This document shows positions 3,541 to 51,441 of a stretch of DNA of 57,604 bases, one piece after another (within the stretch, counting starts at the first letter, position 1; each line of letters opens with the position of its first letter). The translations under genes and the position numbers were made by a program. The notes under the pieces are model-generated. The model saw only the letters and a program-made list of their open reading frames with translations, was not told where the DNA came from and searched no databases. The stretch comes from Clostridiales bacterium UBA4821 (lineage in GTDB: Bacteria; Bacillota; Clostridia; Acetivibrionales; UBA4821): contig DHFP01000270.1 of NCBI GenBank assembly GCA_002402315.1, forward strand, positions 1 through 57,604. The letters are read 5' to 3'.

Positions 3541-4560
3541 TTAAATTATATTCTTACGTCTATATTCTTTTGCTATGATATCAAACTCCGACATATTTAT
3601 ATTTCCGTTCCTTCCAATAAAACCTGCTATTCTATAACCCAATCCTTTAAGTTCATTAATATAATTGGATTGCAGCCGGTCTAGATCAAAACTATCATCT
3701 GTATCTTCCCCCTTTAGACCCAGAATTGCCTCACAAAAGCTTAAGCGCTTAGACCATGGATGACACTTAATTGATGTTTTATTATTATGCATATTCAGGT
3801 CATTAATTATAATCCCGCTGAAATTCTTTTTAAGAACTTCACAACCATAATTAATTATTACTGAATTGTCAGGAATCCTGCAAGAATTAACAAACTTGGA
3901 GTCTTTACTGAAGTTTATTATAACATTACATTCTTTAAGCAGATCCGTATTGGTACTGCTAAGTCTAACCACCAGTCCTGTGTCCTGGTAAATATTTTCT
4001 ACCATTTTTGATAGATTACTATGCTCTAAAGAAAGTATGCTTAAAAACCTGATTCCTTCTGATAATCTCGTTATTATTGAAATTATTCCTGCATTTATAC
4101 CATCAACAATTAGTCCTACCCTGAGGTGAGTTATACTGACTTTCAACAGTTTACAGATAGTTTTAAAGATTTCTTCAATATATAAAATAAATAGTTTATC
4201 TCCATTAAATATCTTGAATGCCTCTTTTGAATTAAAATAACCAGTTATTACTTCACTCTCATTAAGTACATCATCTAATAGAACTCTATCAACTTTTAGT
4301 TCCTGTAAAAGCAAATCAATCTGCTCACACCATTTCAATACTTTATCATGATCAGCCAGACTTAATGCTTCTGCCACTGTGGGAAACTGGATTTCATATA
4401 CATCACAATTCATTTCACTGAATATTATATAATGCCAGTAAGGTAACATTCTTTCTAAAAAAAGCTTTCTAAGCCTGGCAGGAATAAATCTATGTAAACT
4501 TCCCTTTAATAATATTTCTTTTAATCCTGATGGGCAATAAATAACAGCTATAGTCTTCAC
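3541..4560 (-). CDS. hypothetical cytoplasmic protein, 339 aa, no family recognised
   Basis: Long uninterrupted ORF with the codon and amino-acid bias of the neighbouring genes; no motif I can name. Confidence 0.6.
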   Translation of the reverse strand: MKTIAVIYCPSGLKEILLKGSLHRFIPARLRKLFLERMLPYWHYIIFSEMNCDVYEIQFPTVAEALSLADHDKVLKWCEQIDLLLQELKVDRVLLDDVLNESEVITGYFNSKEAFKIFNGDKLFILYIEEIFKTICKLLKVSITHLRVGLIVDGINAGIISIITRLSEGIRFLSILSLEHSNLSKMVENIYQDTGLVVRLSSTNTDLLKECNVIINFSKDSKFVNSCRIPDNSVIINYGCEVLKKNFSGIIINDLNMHNNKTSIKCHPWSKRLSFCEAILGLKGEDTDDSFDLDRLQSNYINELKGLGYRIAGFIGRNGNINMSEFDIIAKEYRRKNII

Positions 4561-4653: not shown

Positions 4654-4719
4654 GGCAAGTGGGGACGGTTCTTGACTTGCTAGTTCTGGCTAGCAAGTCA
4701 AGAACCGTCCCCACTTGCC
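4654..4719. repeat. perfect palindrome with 30-bp arms and a 6-nt spacer (REP/foldback-like element)
   Basis: ggcaagtggggacggttcttgacttgctag ttctgg ctagcaagtcaagaaccgtccccacttgcc. Sits in a divergent promoter region, so it is not a terminator for either neighbour. An extra tandem ggcaagtgggg lies at 4644-4654. Confidence 0.85.
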
Positions 4720-4804
4720 TTAAATCTTTTGAAAATTAGTCTGGACATCAAGTAAAATCATTGATATTATATTAATGAATGTATTGTGCAGTAGGAGGTT
4801 AATA

Positions 4805-5269
4805 ATGTTTCAAAGGAATTTGAATTCAGGTACTTCTAATTTTAATACTCTGGTAGGAAGCGGCGCCACCTTGGACGGAGACTTTAATGCTGATGGTAAG
4901 GTAAGGATTGATGGGAAAATAAAAGGCCATGTCAGAATAAACGGTGATTTAATCATAGGTGAAACTGCATTAATTCTTGGTAATATATCAGCCGGCAATG
5001 TTGACCTGGCAGGTACTGTTGAAGGTAATATGTACTGCAAAGGCCAGCTTAAACTTGCCACGACGGCAAAACTTACCGGCGATATCCAGGTAAAAGGACT
5101 CTCTATTGAAGAGGGCGCACAGTTTCAAGGTATATGCAGCATGTCCAATCTTGAAAAGGTTTGTAAGGTTAGCAGTACACTTCCGGTGGACTCAGACGAA
5201 ACTGCCAACCGTTTGAAAAAGAAACCTATTATTAGTAGACCTCAATTTAAAGACTCAACTAACTTGTAG
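4805..5269 (+). CDS. bactofilin-family polymer-forming cytoskeletal protein
   Basis: Repetitive beta-helix sequence (DGKVRIDGKIKGHVRINGDLIIGE..GNVDLAGTVEGNMYCKGQLKL..TGDIQV). Start at the ATG at 4805 behind AGGAGG. Confidence 0.8.
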   Translation: MFQRNLNSGTSNFNTLVGSGATLDGDFNADGKVRIDGKIKGHVRINGDLIIGETALILGNISAGNVDLAGTVEGNMYCKGQLKLATTAKLTGDIQVKGLSIEEGAQFQGICSMSNLEKVCKVSSTLPVDSDETANRLKKKPIISRPQFKDSTNL

Positions 5270-36465: not shown

Positions 36466-37314
36466 TTACTCCTCTGGATATATAGGGTACTCCACCGCCA
36501 TTCTGTCTGCCAGGTTTGCAGCAAATACCGGATCCATATTCCCCATTATTTCTGCTGCGGCTTGCCTCTTCAACAGTTTCATAATATTGGCTACCAGATC
36601 TATATTTCCAAAACCCATATTTTCTAAAACTTTTGCAGCATTAGCAGATTCCATGTTTTCAAATGTCTTAACGAAATTAGTAACCTCTTCGTCAACTTGC
36701 TTTTCTCTCATTATTTTCTCATATATCTGCGCTGCTATATCTTTGTCCATATTTTCAAAGTACTCTGTGAATCCCTTTTCATCCTGCTGTTTTATTTGTT
36801 GTGCAAATTTCAGTTTCTCCTGCTCAAGCTTTTTTCTTTCCTCTTTGATCTTTTTCTTCTCTTGTTCATTACTTGCTTTTTGCTGAGATGTCTCATTTCC
36901 CATTTTCTGCTCATTGTCCTTATATTTCTGCAGTTCACCTATTGTCTTTTGTTGTTCTTCTACCTTCTTGCCAAGCTCTTTGACCTTTGCTCTGAACTCT
37001 TCATACTTCTCAGCAAGTTGGTCTTCAGACATATATTCTGCTGATTCAGGATCCGGATTGGGTGGTAATACCATTCTCACAACAGGTATATTCTTCAAAC
37101 TTCCCCGAAACCTCTCGCCCAACCCGAATTTATTGGCTTTTATGAAATAAGCCCATAAACCGAAAATTATTGATACTACCAGTAGGATGGGAAATAGAAA
37201 AGAAAACAGTCCTGATCCTTTTTTCTTTTTTTGTGGTACCTTATTATTACTATTGGTTGGCTGCTCTCTATCATCTATAGGTCTATTGACTCTCGATGTC
37301 TGTCTATCTGCCAT
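36466..37314 (-). CDS. MotE/FlbB-like protein (YlxF position): TM helix, coiled coil, MgtE_N-like C-terminus
   Basis: N-terminal TM, E/K coiled coil, C-terminal AAKVLENM..AAEIMGNMDP..AANL repeats. Located between fliJ and fliK, as B. subtilis ylxF is. Confidence 0.7.
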   Translation of the reverse strand: MADRQTSRVNRPIDDREQPTNSNNKVPQKKKKGSGLFSFLFPILLVVSIIFGLWAYFIKANKFGLGERFRGSLKNIPVVRMVLPPNPDPESAEYMSEDQLAEKYEEFRAKVKELGKKVEEQQKTIGELQKYKDNEQKMGNETSQQKASNEQEKKKIKEERKKLEQEKLKFAQQIKQQDEKGFTEYFENMDKDIAAQIYEKIMREKQVDEEVTNFVKTFENMESANAAKVLENMGFGNIDLVANIMKLLKRQAAAEIMGNMDPVFAANLADRMAVEYPIYPEE

Positions 37315-37320
37315 ATGTTA

Positions 37321-37776
37321 TCACCTATTTATCTTCTTGTTAGTACTTTCCTTATAACTAATAACTTCATCTATCAATTTTTGTTCCTTCTTATGCTCTT
37401 CTTTAAGGTATTCTGAGTATTGTTTTTCCTTAAGTGTTTCCAGCATCTTTCGTTCCTTAACAGCTTCAATCAACTCTTCTCTATATTTATCGACAATTTG
37501 TCCTGCAGATTTAACCCTTTCCGATTGATTTATAATTTTTTGTTTAATAAAAGAAATGTATGCATTGTAGTTCCGCAGTTTATCAATGGTTACGCCCCCC
37601 GAAACCTTGGTACTGACTTCTGACATACATTTCTTTTTTTGATTCTTTAGTTCCTCAAGAATTATTTTCTCAGCCTCAAGAACCTGAATAGCTTCTCCAA
37701 GCTTAGTTTTAATACTATCCTCCATTTGCTTTTTTATATTAAGCATAGGCTGCAGCTTAAAAACAAACTTGGCCAC
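37321..37776 (-). CDS. fliJ: flagellar export chaperone FliJ
   Basis: About 150-aa all-helical protein (FKLQPMLNIKKQMED..). GTG start behind GGAGGAGAG. Confidence 0.8.
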   Translation of the reverse strand: MAKFVFKLQPMLNIKKQMEDSIKTKLGEAIQVLEAEKIILEELKNQKKKCMSEVSTKVSGGVTIDKLRNYNAYISFIKQKIINQSERVKSAGQIVDKYREELIEAVKERKMLETLKEKQYSEYLKEEHKKEQKLIDEVISYKESTNKKINR

Positions 37777-37808
37777 TAATACTCTCCTCCGATAGATTTA
37801 TTACCGTT

Positions 37809-38008
37809 ATTAATACTACTTTTCAGATTAGTTAATCTGTAGAAGGAAAATAATTTCTGGAGGATAGTTTCATTTGACCCGTAAGGAATACATCTGAGGA
37901 AAATGCCGATAGACTACCCTAGAGACGTTTCCTCATAAGGCACTTTTCCGATGCTATTTGAAACTATCCGGAAGACATTATTTTCCTGAGTAACATAGTA
38001 GTATTAAT
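37809..38008 (-). repeat. 200-nt imperfect rod-like inverted repeat (MITE-like element or structured intercistronic RNA) between fliI and fliJ
   Basis: Perfect paired segments: 37809-20/37997-38008 (12 bp), 37844-54/37977-87 (11 bp), 37862-72/37959-69 (11 bp), plus inner 4+6+4 bp pairs around 37891-37953. No ORF longer than 11 codons found by eye on either strand. Confidence 0.75.
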
Positions 38009-38029
38009 TCATGTTCAAAAAGAGCTGGA

Positions 38030-39364
38030 TTAGGTTAAAATAGAACCCATTAGTTCCAAAACCTCTGCATACGTAACCGGCTCGTGTACTTCCTGTTGCA
38101 GGAATTCATTTATTCTATCAATTACGTCAATAGCATAATCTATTTTAGGATTGCTCCCCTTAACATATGCACCTATATTTATTAAGTCTTCGGATTCTTT
38201 ATATATAGCCATGACCTTCTTAATCTGATTTGCCAGAGTCTTGTGCTCCTGTGTGATAATATCAGGCATTACCCTGCTTATACTGCTCAATATATCAATT
38301 GCAGGAAAGTGGTTTTTATTTGCCAGACTTCGTGAAAGTACGATATGCCCGTCCAGAATTCCCCTTGCTGCATCAGTCACCGGTTCGGTAAGGTCATCTC
38401 CATCCACAAGTACCGTGTAAAGCCCTGTAATGGAACCCCGTTCCGAATTCCCTGCTCTTTCAAGAAGCTTGGGTAACAATGCAAAGACTGATGGGGTATA
38501 ACCCCGTGAAACGGGGGGCTCGCCTACCGCCAGACCCACTTCCCTTTGGGCCATGGCAAATCTGGTAAGTGAATCCATAAGAAGCAATACATCTTTGCCC
38601 TGGTTCCTGAAATATTCAGCAATCGCCGTAGCAACAAAAGCCCCTTTCAGCCGAATCAAGGCAGGTTGGTCTGAAGTAGCTACAATTACTATAGATCTTT
38701 TTAATCCTTCTTCCTTAAGATCCTTCTCAAGAAACTCCCTTACCTCTCTTCCACGTTCTCCGATTAATGCTATAATATTTATATCAGCCTTTGTATTACG
38801 GGCAATCATTCCCATAAGAGTACTCTTTCCTACACCGCTGCCGGCAAATATTCCAATTCTCTGACCCTTACCAATGGTCAAAAACCCATCAATAGCCTTT
38901 ACACCTAATTCAAGAGGCTCCATAATCCTTTTTCTTGTAAGTGGATGGGGAGGTTTGTTAAATACCGGGTATTTCTCGTTTGATAAAGACAAAAAAGACT
39001 GGTCTATAGGCTGGCCAAGTCCATTTAATACCTTTCCCTTCAGTTCAGCCCCAACACTAATGGTCAGTGTTTCGTTTAAAGCAGTCACCTTACTGCCGGG
39101 AGCTATCCCGCTCATTTCTCCAAGCGGCATAAGAAGTACCTTATTGTCCTTAAACCCGACAACTTCACATAATAGTTCTGCACTATTATTGGTACTGACT
39201 GAACATAATTCTCCAATGCTGACAGAAGGCCCAACTGCTTCAATTGTAAGGCCTACTACCTGTGATATCTTCCCGTAACGTACAATAAAATCCGAGCTGC
39301 TTAATGCTTCATGATATTTACTTAAGCTAAACGATAACAATTGTCCCCCTCCCTGCAAAATCAC
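38030..39364 (-). CDS. fliI: flagellum-specific ATPase FliI
   Basis: Walker A GSGVGKST, Walker B VLLLMDS. ATGA overlap with fliH. Confidence 0.95.
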   Translation of the reverse strand: MILQGGGQLLSFSLSKYHEALSSSDFIVRYGKISQVVGLTIEAVGPSVSIGELCSVSTNNSAELLCEVVGFKDNKVLLMPLGEMSGIAPGSKVTALNETLTISVGAELKGKVLNGLGQPIDQSFLSLSNEKYPVFNKPPHPLTRKRIMEPLELGVKAIDGFLTIGKGQRIGIFAGSGVGKSTLMGMIARNTKADINIIALIGERGREVREFLEKDLKEEGLKRSIVIVATSDQPALIRLKGAFVATAIAEYFRNQGKDVLLLMDSLTRFAMAQREVGLAVGEPPVSRGYTPSVFALLPKLLERAGNSERGSITGLYTVLVDGDDLTEPVTDAARGILDGHIVLSRSLANKNHFPAIDILSSISRVMPDIITQEHKTLANQIKKVMAIYKESEDLINIGAYVKGSNPKIDYAIDVIDRINEFLQQEVHEPVTYAEVLELMGSILT

Positions 39365-41125: not shown

Positions 41126-42685
41126 CTAATCCCAGTCATCTGCCAACCAGTTTCTTAATAATTGCGCTACTGCCTCAGGCTTATGTTTGATGAATTTATC
41201 TATTTGTTTTTTCACTTCCGACTTCTCTTCAATATCTATTTCAGGAAGATCATCTTCACTTACAATACTTGCGGAAAGTGATGTATTCATTCCTGATCCT
41301 TGAACAGCCAAGCCCCTGTCCAAAGCTGCTCCTCTTCTCATAACACCTATTGCTAATAGTAGTATGAGTATACCTACTATCGCAATTGGACCTATCTTCC
41401 CAAGCAAACTCATCCAATCTGTTTTTGGCGCTTCAACCTTAGCAGGGTTAAGCTTGAAACTTGTTATTGCAATATTTTTCTCCGGAATACCTGTTGCTTT
41501 TGATATTGCATTTAGGGCCTCATCAATTTCCGGTTGCGCAGGAGCATTGGGTGTATTTGTACCATAAAGAAAACTTACTGTAATGGAGGATTTTTCTGTA
41601 TCCAGCATCCCAATGGCCTTATTTGTCTCAATATTCTTTTGGTTTATCTCATAGTTATTAATTACGTCTGACTTCTTATATGATGAATCAGATCCATCTC
41701 CGGACGTATATGACGGTGTGGTGCTATTCCCTCCATTTGAGTCAGTCCCAGGTACCCCGCCTGTAGATCCGTTCTGGACTTCTTCCTTGTGCGTTTCTGA
41801 ACTTCTTAGAATACCACTATCCCCTCCAACAACAGGTGTATATTGTACTTCCTTGGTGGTTTCGGTACTAAAGTCACAGACAACATTTGCTGCAACCCGT
41901 ATACCATCATACCTGTTGCTGAATAGGTTGGTTACTTTGTTCTCTATATCTTTCTTATTGATATCCATTATCTCATACTGGCTTGACGTGATACCTGTTG
42001 TGTCATCATCACTGGCAGAATTAAGCAATTTGCCCGTGTATTTGTCAATAACCTTTACATTTTTGGGCTCCAGCCCTTCAACACTGGCTGCTACGAACCT
42101 TACTATCCCATCTACCTGCTTTTTTGACAAATCTTCCCTGGATTCAATCATTACAGCTGCAGTAGGCATTTGTGCTTCAGGGTCACCAAGAAATACATCC
42201 TTCTCAGGCAAACTAAGATTTACAACTGCATCTTTTATATTATCTATTTTCTTTAAACCGACTGCTATCTTTTGCTCATCGTACTCCTTGAATATTTTCT
42301 TCTTATCACTTTCGGTTGTGGAAAGCTTGATTGAACTAAGGGCATCCTTGAAGGTCATACCTCCTCTTGGATATCCAGCCTGGGCCAAGGCTATCTGAGC
42401 CATATCCTTATCCTTAGATTTAACTTCTATAGAAGTTCCACCGTCAGTAAGTTTGTGTTCTATATTATTTTCCTTAAGAATTGTACTCATTTCCCCAACT
42501 TCTTTAGAGTCAATTCTACCACTAAAGAGGTTTTCATAATTGGGTCTTGTAACAATAAATATGGCAACAGTAATACTCGCAATAACCAGAATAGCTATAA
42601 GTATCATTCTGGTCTTTTGCGACTTGTCCATATCGTTCCAGATTTCTAGTGCCTGCTGTTGTAATCTTGCCAACGCTTCAGGCAT
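41126..42685 (-). CDS. fliF: flagellar MS-ring protein FliF
   Basis: N- and C-terminal TM helices, ring-building motifs, C-terminal FliG-binding tail LLRNWLADD. Confidence 0.93.
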   Translation of the reverse strand: MPEALARLQQQALEIWNDMDKSQKTRMILIAILVIASITVAIFIVTRPNYENLFSGRIDSKEVGEMSTILKENNIEHKLTDGGTSIEVKSKDKDMAQIALAQAGYPRGGMTFKDALSSIKLSTTESDKKKIFKEYDEQKIAVGLKKIDNIKDAVVNLSLPEKDVFLGDPEAQMPTAAVMIESREDLSKKQVDGIVRFVAASVEGLEPKNVKVIDKYTGKLLNSASDDDTTGITSSQYEIMDINKKDIENKVTNLFSNRYDGIRVAANVVCDFSTETTKEVQYTPVVGGDSGILRSSETHKEEVQNGSTGGVPGTDSNGGNSTTPSYTSGDGSDSSYKKSDVINNYEINQKNIETNKAIGMLDTEKSSITVSFLYGTNTPNAPAQPEIDEALNAISKATGIPEKNIAITSFKLNPAKVEAPKTDWMSLLGKIGPIAIVGILILLLAIGVMRRGAALDRGLAVQGSGMNTSLSASIVSEDDLPEIDIEEKSEVKKQIDKFIKHKPEAVAQLLRNWLADDWD

Positions 42686-49762: not shown

Positions 49763-50477
49763 AGGAAAAACCTCTTCGGTTTTTCCTGCCACCTTTTCCC
49801 GCTGGTTCCCTATGCTCCTTGATAAGAGCGTCTAGATTGTGCTCCATCCTTCCCGGGGTCGCAATCAATTGCCCTCCTTGGCAAGTGATTGCTAAATTCG
49901 ACGTCCTGTCGAATTTCCCCCTCCAGTCTTCCGCACAATCAAGACGCTCTATATCTCGTCACAACGGGAATATCCCGTAATTCCTTCGGAGTTACTAAAA
50001 AGCAACTTGGAAGATATACTGAATATCCCGTTATTCCGAGCATTAGAGATTCTTATATTTTATGGAGGAGTGAAGGGGGTAACTTGCCAAGGAGGGCAAG
50101 TTAAATGGCTATCAGACATGGAGGTCTGTTAGCCATGACCCCGGAAGGACGGAATAAAATATTAGAAGCTCTTAGCGAGGAATTCAGGGATTAAGCAGAG
50201 AGGATTCCAAAAGGAGTACGAAGGGTGCTCCTTTTGAAGGCTGCTTTGAATACAATTTAAGGAATACAGGATATGATTTGTAGTGTGCACCCTGCACAAT
50301 AGCTTCAAAATTTTTGTGCAACTTGCCAATAGATTTGACCTGTCCAAAGGGTGTATAATAAAAGTATATTAACATTTTTATATTATCACGAACACGCTTT
50401 TCGAGCACTCTCATGGCGAGATGTATGGATAGGAGATTTTTCTCTTACGAGTATATACTCGCTTTTTGCTTTTTTGG
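49763..50477 (+). ncRNA. candidate large structured non-coding RNA or leader, family unknown; strand tentative
   Basis: Locally GC-rich: by hand count 33 of 60 bases at 49801-49860 and 29 of 60 at 49861-49920 are G or C, in an AT-rich genome. Only stop-riddled or atypical ORFs. Helices: 49869-86/50082-99 (18 bp, perfect); 49848-60/50137-48 (12 bp plus a bulge); 49826-42/49933-49 (16 of 17); hairpins at 49763-85, 49894-916, 49964-78, 49984-50013, 50105-36 and 50208-36. Two G-U wobbles fit the plus strand only. Confidence 0.4.
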
Positions 50478-50980: not shown

Positions 50981-51151
50981 ATGGAAAAATTTTTAGGTCA
51001 AATTGCAAATTGGGCAGTACCCGCAGGTTTGTTTTTTACTATAGGAGTGTTTGTTGTACAACATGCTCCCAAAATAAATTTAGACTATCTTTACATACCT
51101 GCCATAATCGCTGGAGCAATTTGGTTCGGCGGTAAATACTACGGTAAGTAG
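50981..51151 (+). CDS. unlisted 56-aa two-TM peptide (below the ORF-track cutoff)
   Basis: ATG at 50981 behind AGAGAGG. Translation MEKFLGQIANWAVPAGLFFTIGVFVVQHAPKINLDYLYIPAIIAGAIWFGGKYYGK, stop at 51149-51151, with a terminator immediately after. Confidence 0.5.
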   Translation: MEKFLGQIANWAVPAGLFFTIGVFVVQHAPKINLDYLYIPAIIAGAIWFGGKYYGK

Positions 51152-51162
51152 TAGTGTTATTT

Positions 51163-51189
51163 TTACTCCCCTTCAAGGGAGTATTTTTT
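51163..51189 (+). terminator. rho-independent terminator of the two-gene plus-strand unit
   Basis: tactccc/gggagta stem, 6-nt loop, then ttttttt. Confidence 0.7.
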
Positions 51190-51193
51190 TGTT

Positions 51194-51221
51194 GAGTCAG
51201 TGGGCGCTGCCCCACTGACTC
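51194..51221. terminator. second GC-rich hairpin between convergent units
   Basis: 11-bp stem gagtcagtggg/cccactgactc with loop cgctgc, 5 nt from the stop of the minus-strand gene. The U-run is only moderate on the plus side. Confidence 0.4.
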
Positions 51222-51225
51222 TGTT

Positions 51226-51441
51226 CTATTTCACTATTTTCCCAACAATCTCTTCCTGGGAAGTTAACCTATTATCAATATGTAAAATATCACCCCAAAT
51301 ACCCTTTACATCCCTCTTGACTTCCTTGATATCAATCTCGACTTCCTTTATATCCTTTTTCAATTCCTTAACGTCAGTCTCAATAATATCTAACTTTGAT
51401 AATTTTTCAAGAACCAATTTTTGAAATTCTTCGCTGTTCAT
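51226..51441 (-). CDS. orphan 71-aa coiled-coil protein
   Basis: ATG at 51441 behind GGAGG with an 8-nt spacer. Heptad-like repeat sequence DVKELKKDIKEVEIDIKEVKRDVKG. The longer ORF-track start at 51531 lacks an RBS. Confidence 0.55.
   Translation of the reverse strand: MNSEEFQKLVLEKLSKLDIIETDVKELKKDIKEVEIDIKEVKRDVKGIWGDILHIDNRLTSQEEIVGKIVK

Follow-up and report, generated by a model that had tools for sequence, protein, structure and literature searches.

What is the 253-nt sequence that separates fliI from fliJ in the flagellar operon of Clostridiales bacterium UBA4821, and how did it come to lie there? The operon is found on the minus strand of the 57,604-nucleotide stretch of DNA that was analysed (the whole of this stretch is called the window here). 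It is a flagellar/chemotaxis operon of the kind typical of Firmicutes, located downstream of dprA–topA–trmFO–codY, and its genes follow the order flgB, flgC, fliE, fliF (41126–42685), fliG, fliH, fliI, fliJ, a ylxF-like gene, fliK, flgD and flgE (assignments by Pfam). Sporulation genes are found elsewhere in the window (e.g. a germination protease gene); taken with a GC content of 37% and FliJ relatives labelled Clostridia, they assign the organism to the uncultured spore-forming Firmicutes. An earlier note on this DNA had called the operon tightly packed, and at most junctions the genes do overlap or lie <40 nt apart; the description is too strict for a few spacers of 75–97 nt and for two gaps of 371 and 542 nt, which house the small genes fliQ and flbD. 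The sequence between fliI and fliJ (37777–38029, minus strand) is the largest ORF-less spacer of the operon.

The fliI gene (38030–39364, minus strand) encodes the flagellar export ATPase, with Pfam matches to ATP-synt_ab (1.7e-92) and T3SS_ATPase_C, and ends in a TAA stop codon at 38030–38032 (minus strand). The fliJ gene (37321–37776, minus strand) encodes a protein of 151 aa (Pfam FliJ, PF02050, 7.6e-25). It has a ribosome-binding site of its own and a GTG start, as the earlier note had claimed: the Shine–Dalgarno sequence GGAGGAGAG is located at 37782–37790 and the GTG codon at 37774–37776, both on the minus strand. The export ATPase complex has the composition FliI6–FliJ1, and the two proteins are needed at a ratio of about 6:1. 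The start of fliI itself is ambiguous: a GTG at 39364 gives a protein of 444 aa and overlaps the fliH stop, and an alternative TTG at 39340, preceded by GGGAGGGGGA, a better ribosome-binding site, gives a protein of 436 aa, a length like that in relatives (435–436 aa in most). The exact FliI protein, in the form of either 444 or 436 aa, has no record in the public collections, whereas the FliJ protein of the window has one.

Anatomy and folding of the fliI–fliJ spacer

The spacer encodes no ORF of ≥20 aa, which agrees with the claim of the earlier note that the gap is non-coding; the same note had put the longest ORF at 11 codons, and the longest ORFs with a canonical start in fact have 13 codons (minus strand) and 12 codons (plus strand). 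Within the spacer lies a foldback element of 200 bp (37809–38008), an end-to-end imperfect hairpin with a GC content of 34.5% (37.3% for the window). All six reading frames of the element contain stop codons, and the stop-free stretches inside it do not exceed about 29 codons. The two halves of the element align at 64 out of 72 ungapped positions (∼89% identity), with several indels. That one long imperfect hairpin fills these 200 nt had also been read from the sequence before, and it was recovered both by an inverted-repeat search and as a single rod in the predicted fold.

The ends of the element are formed by terminal inverted repeats of 12 bp: the repeat on the fliI side (AGTAGTATTAAT on the plus strand, 37997–38008) is complementary at 12 out of 12 positions to the repeat on the fliJ side (ATTAATACTACT on the plus strand, 37809–37820). 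Further inside are two inner arms of 29 nt each (37959–37987 on the fliI side and 37844–37872 on the fliJ side), which are 86% complementary and consist of two perfect 11-bp blocks with a partly mismatched segment of 7 nt between them. The 12-bp outer arms and the two 11-bp blocks of the earlier note are thus found as described. The inner arms form the longest near-continuous helix of the element (∼25–29 bp; 11+3+11 bp). A side hairpin (CAGATTAGTTAATCTG on the plus strand, 37824–37839), with a 6-bp stem and a 4-nt loop, is present in the fliJ-proximal arm only, and the arms are asymmetric (23 nt versus 9 nt) because this 16-nt hairpin has no equivalent in the other arm. At the tip of the hairpin, an 8-bp pairing had been proposed as an alternative; the pairing exists, but it is more than an alternative, as the minimum-free-energy fold uses it (UGAGGAAA/UUUCCUCA). 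The terminal repeats end in the palindrome ATTAAT, and because the termini are palindromic, a target duplication (TA, TTAA, ATTAAT or ATTAATA) would be indistinguishable from the inverted repeat.

The predicted fold of the spacer RNA is very stable: the sense strand folds into a single rod with −73.6 kcal/mol (z −5.9), and none of 200 shuffled sequences folds as well; for the antisense RNA of the spacer the values are −65.4 kcal/mol and z −3.75. For the 200-nt core, the two strands are close (−62.9 kcal/mol for sense versus −61.0 kcal/mol for antisense RNA, with six versus five G–U pairs), and the core folded as single-stranded DNA reaches −34.2 kcal/mol (z −6.6). On either strand, the element is also about 3.8 SD more stable, after adjustment for GC content, than the mean of 575 other 200-nt segments taken from the window. 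Strand asymmetry in folding, which would be a sign of selection at the RNA level, was not found for the core; equal folding on both strands points to a palindrome at the DNA level rather than to selection acting on the RNA of a single strand. The element is the only nested foldback of ∼200 nt in the 57-kb window.

We scanned the surrounding region for signals of transcription. No sigma-70-like promoter or intrinsic terminator was found by consensus scan on the minus strand of 37300–38500, and no promoter- or terminator-like site inside the element on either strand. The sole promoter-like match in 37300–38500 (38014–38041, plus strand, nine out of 12 positions) lies beyond the element and is directed away from it; the scanned region holds fewer promoter-like matches than its shuffled versions. 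Neither the rod nor the side hairpin is followed by a T-run. A candidate for a sigma-D-type promoter at GCCGATAG (37906–37913, plus strand) was rejected, as inspection by eye found no TAAA at sigma-D-type spacing. The Rfam families Termite-flg and Clostridiales-1, which had been named earlier as candidates, do not match even at E≤10, and neither does flg-Rhizobiales; at this threshold, the 501 nt of 37650–38150 gave three noise matches only (NBR2, CRISPR-DR52 and SNORD10). At the gathering score, the whole window has no Rfam match except TwoAYGGAY elsewhere (see below), and a scan for tRNA and tmRNA genes found nothing.

The predicted fold also involves the sequences on either side of the element. 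The predicted partner of the fliJ Shine–Dalgarno sequence, across the base of the rod, is a CU-rich tract (GCUCUUUUU, 38017–38025, minus strand) that starts 4 nt downstream of the fliI stop: in a prediction that extended 40 nt into fliI and 30 nt into fliJ, the paired probability of GGAGGAGAG with GCUCUUUUU is 0.96 with the element and 0.95 without it, and the partners are unchanged. This pairing is not evident in the spacers of relatives.

The junction in relatives, in other assemblies and beyond

A search of 5.8 billion sequences found closest FliJ proteins that are 63–70% identical to that of the window. The presence or absence of the element at fliI–fliJ of relatives, a check already suggested in the earlier note, could be read in seven related organisms: gene order is the same in all of them, the fliI–fliJ gaps are 13, 13, 13, 14, 30, 49 and 102 nt, and the element is found in none. 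Nor do the seven spacers resemble it in sequence: their local alignment scores stay within the range of shuffled sequences. In the four relatives with gaps of 13–14 nt, the fliJ ribosome-binding site is located right at the fliI stop. Removal of 37809–38008 from the window leaves a spacer of 53 nt, which is inside the range of the relatives. Because the element is absent from the seven junctions and its removal leaves a spacer of such length, these comparisons identify it as an apparently clean, lineage-specific insertion. Neither an empty site of the same species nor a same-species contig that reaches over the fliI side of the junction was found, the closest FliJ being 70% identical and the closest FliI C-terminus 77% identical.

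Other junctions of the operon carry structured sequences in the relatives. A stretch of 81 nt is common, at 75% identity (E 2e-10), to the ylxF–fliK spacer of one relative (L004) and the fliH–fliI spacer of another (L016); it is a module of two hairpins (…CTAAGATTCAG…CCTGAATC.AAGAAT…) located at L004:4442–4522 and L016:1089–1166. In a third relative (L007), the fliH–fliI spacer of 234 nt contains a foldback of ∼159 nt (L007:1468–1626) with 46-nt arms that are 72% complementary, preceded by a perfect 11-bp hairpin (1433–1457). By local alignment, neither the module nor the foldback has sequence kinship to the element of the window. As far as these sequences tell, flagellar operon junctions in this clade do acquire short structured repeats, and their presence at other junctions raises the prior for an insertion origin of the element.

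Parts of the same junction were found in two other assemblies of the same species, both encoding a FliJ protein identical to that of the window. One of them (L001; ENA ERZ27315072) covers the fliJ-proximal 170 nt of the spacer and the other (L002; Logan SRR5324138) the fliJ-proximal 99 nt, each with 100% identity to the window, and these perfect matches rule out an artefact of assembly. The window assembly alone shows the element in full; its orientation is the same, at 100% identity, in all three assemblies. Both contigs begin inside the element (L001:1 corresponds to 37946 of the window and L002:1 to 37875), and L001, a k=141 contig, extends 138–140 nt into it, i.e. ∼k−1, as is expected of a de Bruijn assembler at the boundary of a repeat. 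The contig breaks are a weak hint of repeated sequence; low coverage explains them equally well, since each contig is cut short at its opposite end too.

Further copies of the element were searched for in several ways. The earlier note had taken copy number in the genome as an indicator of a MITE; this was followed up in the window, where no second copy exists (blastn with word size 7 gives self and arm-to-arm matches only). The inner-arm pattern AGGAAAATAATN7GGATAGTTTCA, which fits both arms of the element, has no match in GTDB representative genomes, JGI metagenomes or IMG/VR, and the pair of terminal repeats with a gap of N{160,190} has none in GTDB representative genomes; these scans demand an exact match at 22–24 specified bases in collections from which the host species is absent, as even the sequence of the window itself gave no match, and are thus a weak test for copies. 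A pattern of terminal repeat plus block 2 gave eight matches in JGI metagenomes, all of which were rejected as chance matches in AT-rich DNA: there is no similarity beyond the pattern and no foldback, and two distinct sequences account for seven of the eight. By blastn, the element has no match in plasmids or phages, and none in 5426 complete Escherichia coli genomes (word size 11, E≤0.01). A Pfam scan of the 30 larger ORFs of the window turned up no gene for a transposase, recombinase or reverse transcriptase, and the window contains no IS with ends that match the element.

Known repeats and the reading of the element

Which known sequences does the element resemble? By a generic definition, prokaryotic MITEs are small (about 50–500 bp), lack coding capacity and have terminal inverted repeats. 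In published descriptions, bacterial MITEs are ∼100–200 bp long, AT-rich, non-coding and intergenic, with terminal inverted repeats and TA-containing termini, and their transcripts fold end to end (PMC2229807, PMC10969869). The element shares with them its size (200 bp), terminal repeats, ATTAAT ends, AT-richness, lack of coding capacity and end-to-end fold. ERIC (or IRU) sequences of Enterobacteria are imperfect palindromes of 127 bp, intergenic and often within operons, and are co-transcribed to form one long stem–loop; in Yersinia their presence alters how stable the adjacent mRNA segments are, and the effect depends on orientation (PMC2229807, PMC10969869). The element is likewise small, non-coding and intergenic, lies within an operon and pairs its 5′ end with its 3′ end. 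However, ERIC has 127 bp and 30–700 copies per genome in Enterobacteria, and the element has 200 bp and one known copy in a different phylum. The possibility that the element is an ERIC by sequence was rejected, as the E. coli genomes in which it has no blastn match carry ERIC.

Correia (or NEMIS) elements of Neisseria have TA termini, are located next to or between genes and are co-transcribed, and the hairpin formed by their inverted repeats is cut by RNase III (PMC2649163, PMC10969869). Foldback structure, terminal repeats, TA at the termini and insertion adjacent to genes are shared with the element. Compared by description, the two differ in that Correia repeats are ∼24–26 bp long and enclose a non-palindromic core with a possible IHF site and promoter elements, whereas the element is palindromic throughout, has perfect termini of 12 bp and contains no promoter-like sequence. 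RUP of pneumococcus (107 bp, 108 copies) has ends that match IS630-Spn1, and RUP and other Firmicute MITEs mobilised by IS630 are, like the element, intergenic, with stops in six frames, short terminal repeats and TA-containing sites (PMC2229807); RUP has an IS partner and many copies, but neither is known for the element. A flagellar comparison is offered by the switch of Clostridium difficile, an invertible element of 154 bp upstream of flgB, which acts via Rho after transcription initiation (PMC7446863). It is flanked by inverted repeats, similar in size and located in an untranslated part of a flagellar operon transcript, as the element is. It differs in being asymmetric inside, located in the operon leader and found in both orientations; the element is palindromic, lies between internal genes and is seen in one orientation.

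The reading that we favour, with about as much doubt as confidence, is that the element is a foldback insertion similar to MITE, ERIC and Correia sequences, co-transcribed with the operon and tolerated there. Of the origins offered in the earlier note, a MITE-like insertion fits best: the junctions of all seven relatives are empty, a spacer of ordinary length remains after removal, and the element is AT-rich and non-coding, with 12-bp repeats and a symmetric fold; the second copy expected of such a repeat has not turned up in the sequences searched. The single copy there, a target duplication that is ambiguous and the lack of a transposase or matching IS in the window are mild points against a MITE. 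An alternative is a local inverted duplication that happened once (e.g. by template switching in replication), was never mobile, and has drifted neutrally since, tolerated by virtue of its self-folding. The divergence of the arms to ∼89% with several indels makes an old event of this kind equally possible on that evidence, and the single copy in all searches and the missing IS partner fit as well. We nevertheless consider such a duplication unlikely: perfect 12-bp termini, clean excision and TA-rich ends are more typical of transposition, and in relatives, movement of other small repeats from one junction to another is clear. Neither arm resembles the spacers of relatives, but non-coding similarity would not survive such a distance. 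Somewhat less unlikely is that the rod, whatever its origin, is now a cis-acting RNA device kept for tuning the operon, either by a cut of a double-strand RNase that would separate the flgB–fliI mRNA from the fliJ–…–sigD mRNA, or by a weaker coupling that would lower FliJ relative to FliI. The very stable structure, with its near-continuous helix of ∼25–29 bp, is consistent with this reading, as are the structured spacers at other junctions of the operon in relatives, the predicted sequestration of the fliJ Shine–Dalgarno sequence by a tract that would be melted by ribosomes finishing the translation of fliI at its stop codon, and the precedent of such effects in ERIC and Correia elements (PMC2229807, PMC10969869). 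However, the rod is not conserved, and its absence from all seven relatives' junctions leaves no covariation to read; its folding lacks strand asymmetry; and the predicted Shine–Dalgarno pairing is identical without the element, which would add nothing there, and is not evident in the relatives.

Two further explanations are very improbable. If a recombinase flipped the 176 bp between the 12-bp repeats, the element could be a phase-variation switch, one orientation of which would lower the expression of fliJ and the genes downstream. Perfect inverted repeats, a size near that of the 154-bp C. difficile switch and a Clostridia-like flagellar operon (PMC7446863) would suit a switch, and so would contigs from two other samples that break inside the element; the breaks, however, do not coincide with the inner repeat edges, and the three assemblies all have one orientation at 100% identity. 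A flip would also achieve little: the interior is quasi-palindromic and would give nearly the same rod and composition (C/G 1.09 versus 0.92), and in neither orientation does a terminator-like T-run follow the stem. The element lies inside the operon and not in its leader, and Pfam found no recombinase gene among the 30 larger ORFs of the window. An independent sRNA gene or an antisense transcript in the spacer, which the earlier note had considered as a cis-antisense/sRNA locus, is as improbable. The region is long, structured and non-coding, as such a locus might be, but the element has no promoter- or terminator-like site on either strand (the nearby plus-strand match points away) and no folding bias towards one strand, and the spacer has no Rfam match, no tRNA or tmRNA and no conservation in relatives; the proposal is thus left unsupported.

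Under the favoured reading of a tolerated foldback insertion, the junction might work as follows. A 200-bp AT-rich foldback with perfect 12-bp termini would have been inserted into a fliI–fliJ spacer of ∼53 nt in the host lineage. With neither a promoter nor a terminator recognisable inside it on the gene strand, it is most likely co-transcribed in the long flagellar operon mRNA, where it would fold up into a closed rod. End-to-end pairing of this rod would hold its flanks (the CU tract after the fliI stop and the fliJ Shine–Dalgarno sequence) side by side. We infer mobility, co-transcription and also the reason for tolerance: an insertion could be accepted at a junction that is coupled in relatives because the local fold near the fliJ start is predicted to be unchanged by the element. 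Effects on expression would be a by-product and not the element's reason to exist; they may include cleavage of the ∼25–29-bp helix by RNase III (the inner-arm helix is a plausible candidate substrate, judging from its predicted fold), protection of fragment ends and weakened coupling between fliI and fliJ. A broader proposal is that junctions of flagellar operons have been colonised repeatedly by small structured repeats, among them this element, the 81-nt module and the ∼159-nt foldback, as a habit of the whole clade. The repeats would be kept because, by way of RNA processing or a change in translational coupling, they set the relative expression of neighbouring genes (an FliI:FliJ ratio of about 6:1, or polarity towards the distal sigD); this we regard as distinctly doubtful, more so than either the one-off duplication or the RNA device.

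What the element means depends on which reading holds. As a MITE-type repeat, it would found a repeat family not described so far, in a poorly sampled group of spore-forming anaerobes. It would also show, in a clean natural case, that a foldback can be accommodated where two genes with products needed in fixed ratios are coupled in translation. If processing or coupling is affected, it would provide a Firmicute case for the ERIC/Correia model, in which repeats tune expression inside operons. A neutral one-off duplication would matter for little more than annotation, where neither 'gene' nor 'regulatory RNA' would be a proper label.

Other structured sequences in the window

Several other structured sequences were observed in the window. 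Two full-length TwoAYGGAY RNAs (RF01731) are encoded at 49812–49964 (minus strand) and 50030–50186 (plus strand), with scores of 66.8 and 63.9 bits (gathering score 43); the pair is divergent, arranged back to back just upstream of dprA. Beside it, the region of 50.2–52.1 kb contains short ORFs only, with no Pfam match, and a very stable segment that flanks the pair (51101–51300; 40% GC) folds with −70 kcal/mol. A perfect inverted repeat of 30 bp with a 6-nt loop (4654–4719) is found in the intergenic region between a divergently oriented ORF (3541–4560, minus strand) and bactofilin gene (4775–5269, plus strand), and a perfect palindrome of 21+21 bp (388–429) is located downstream of tsaD.
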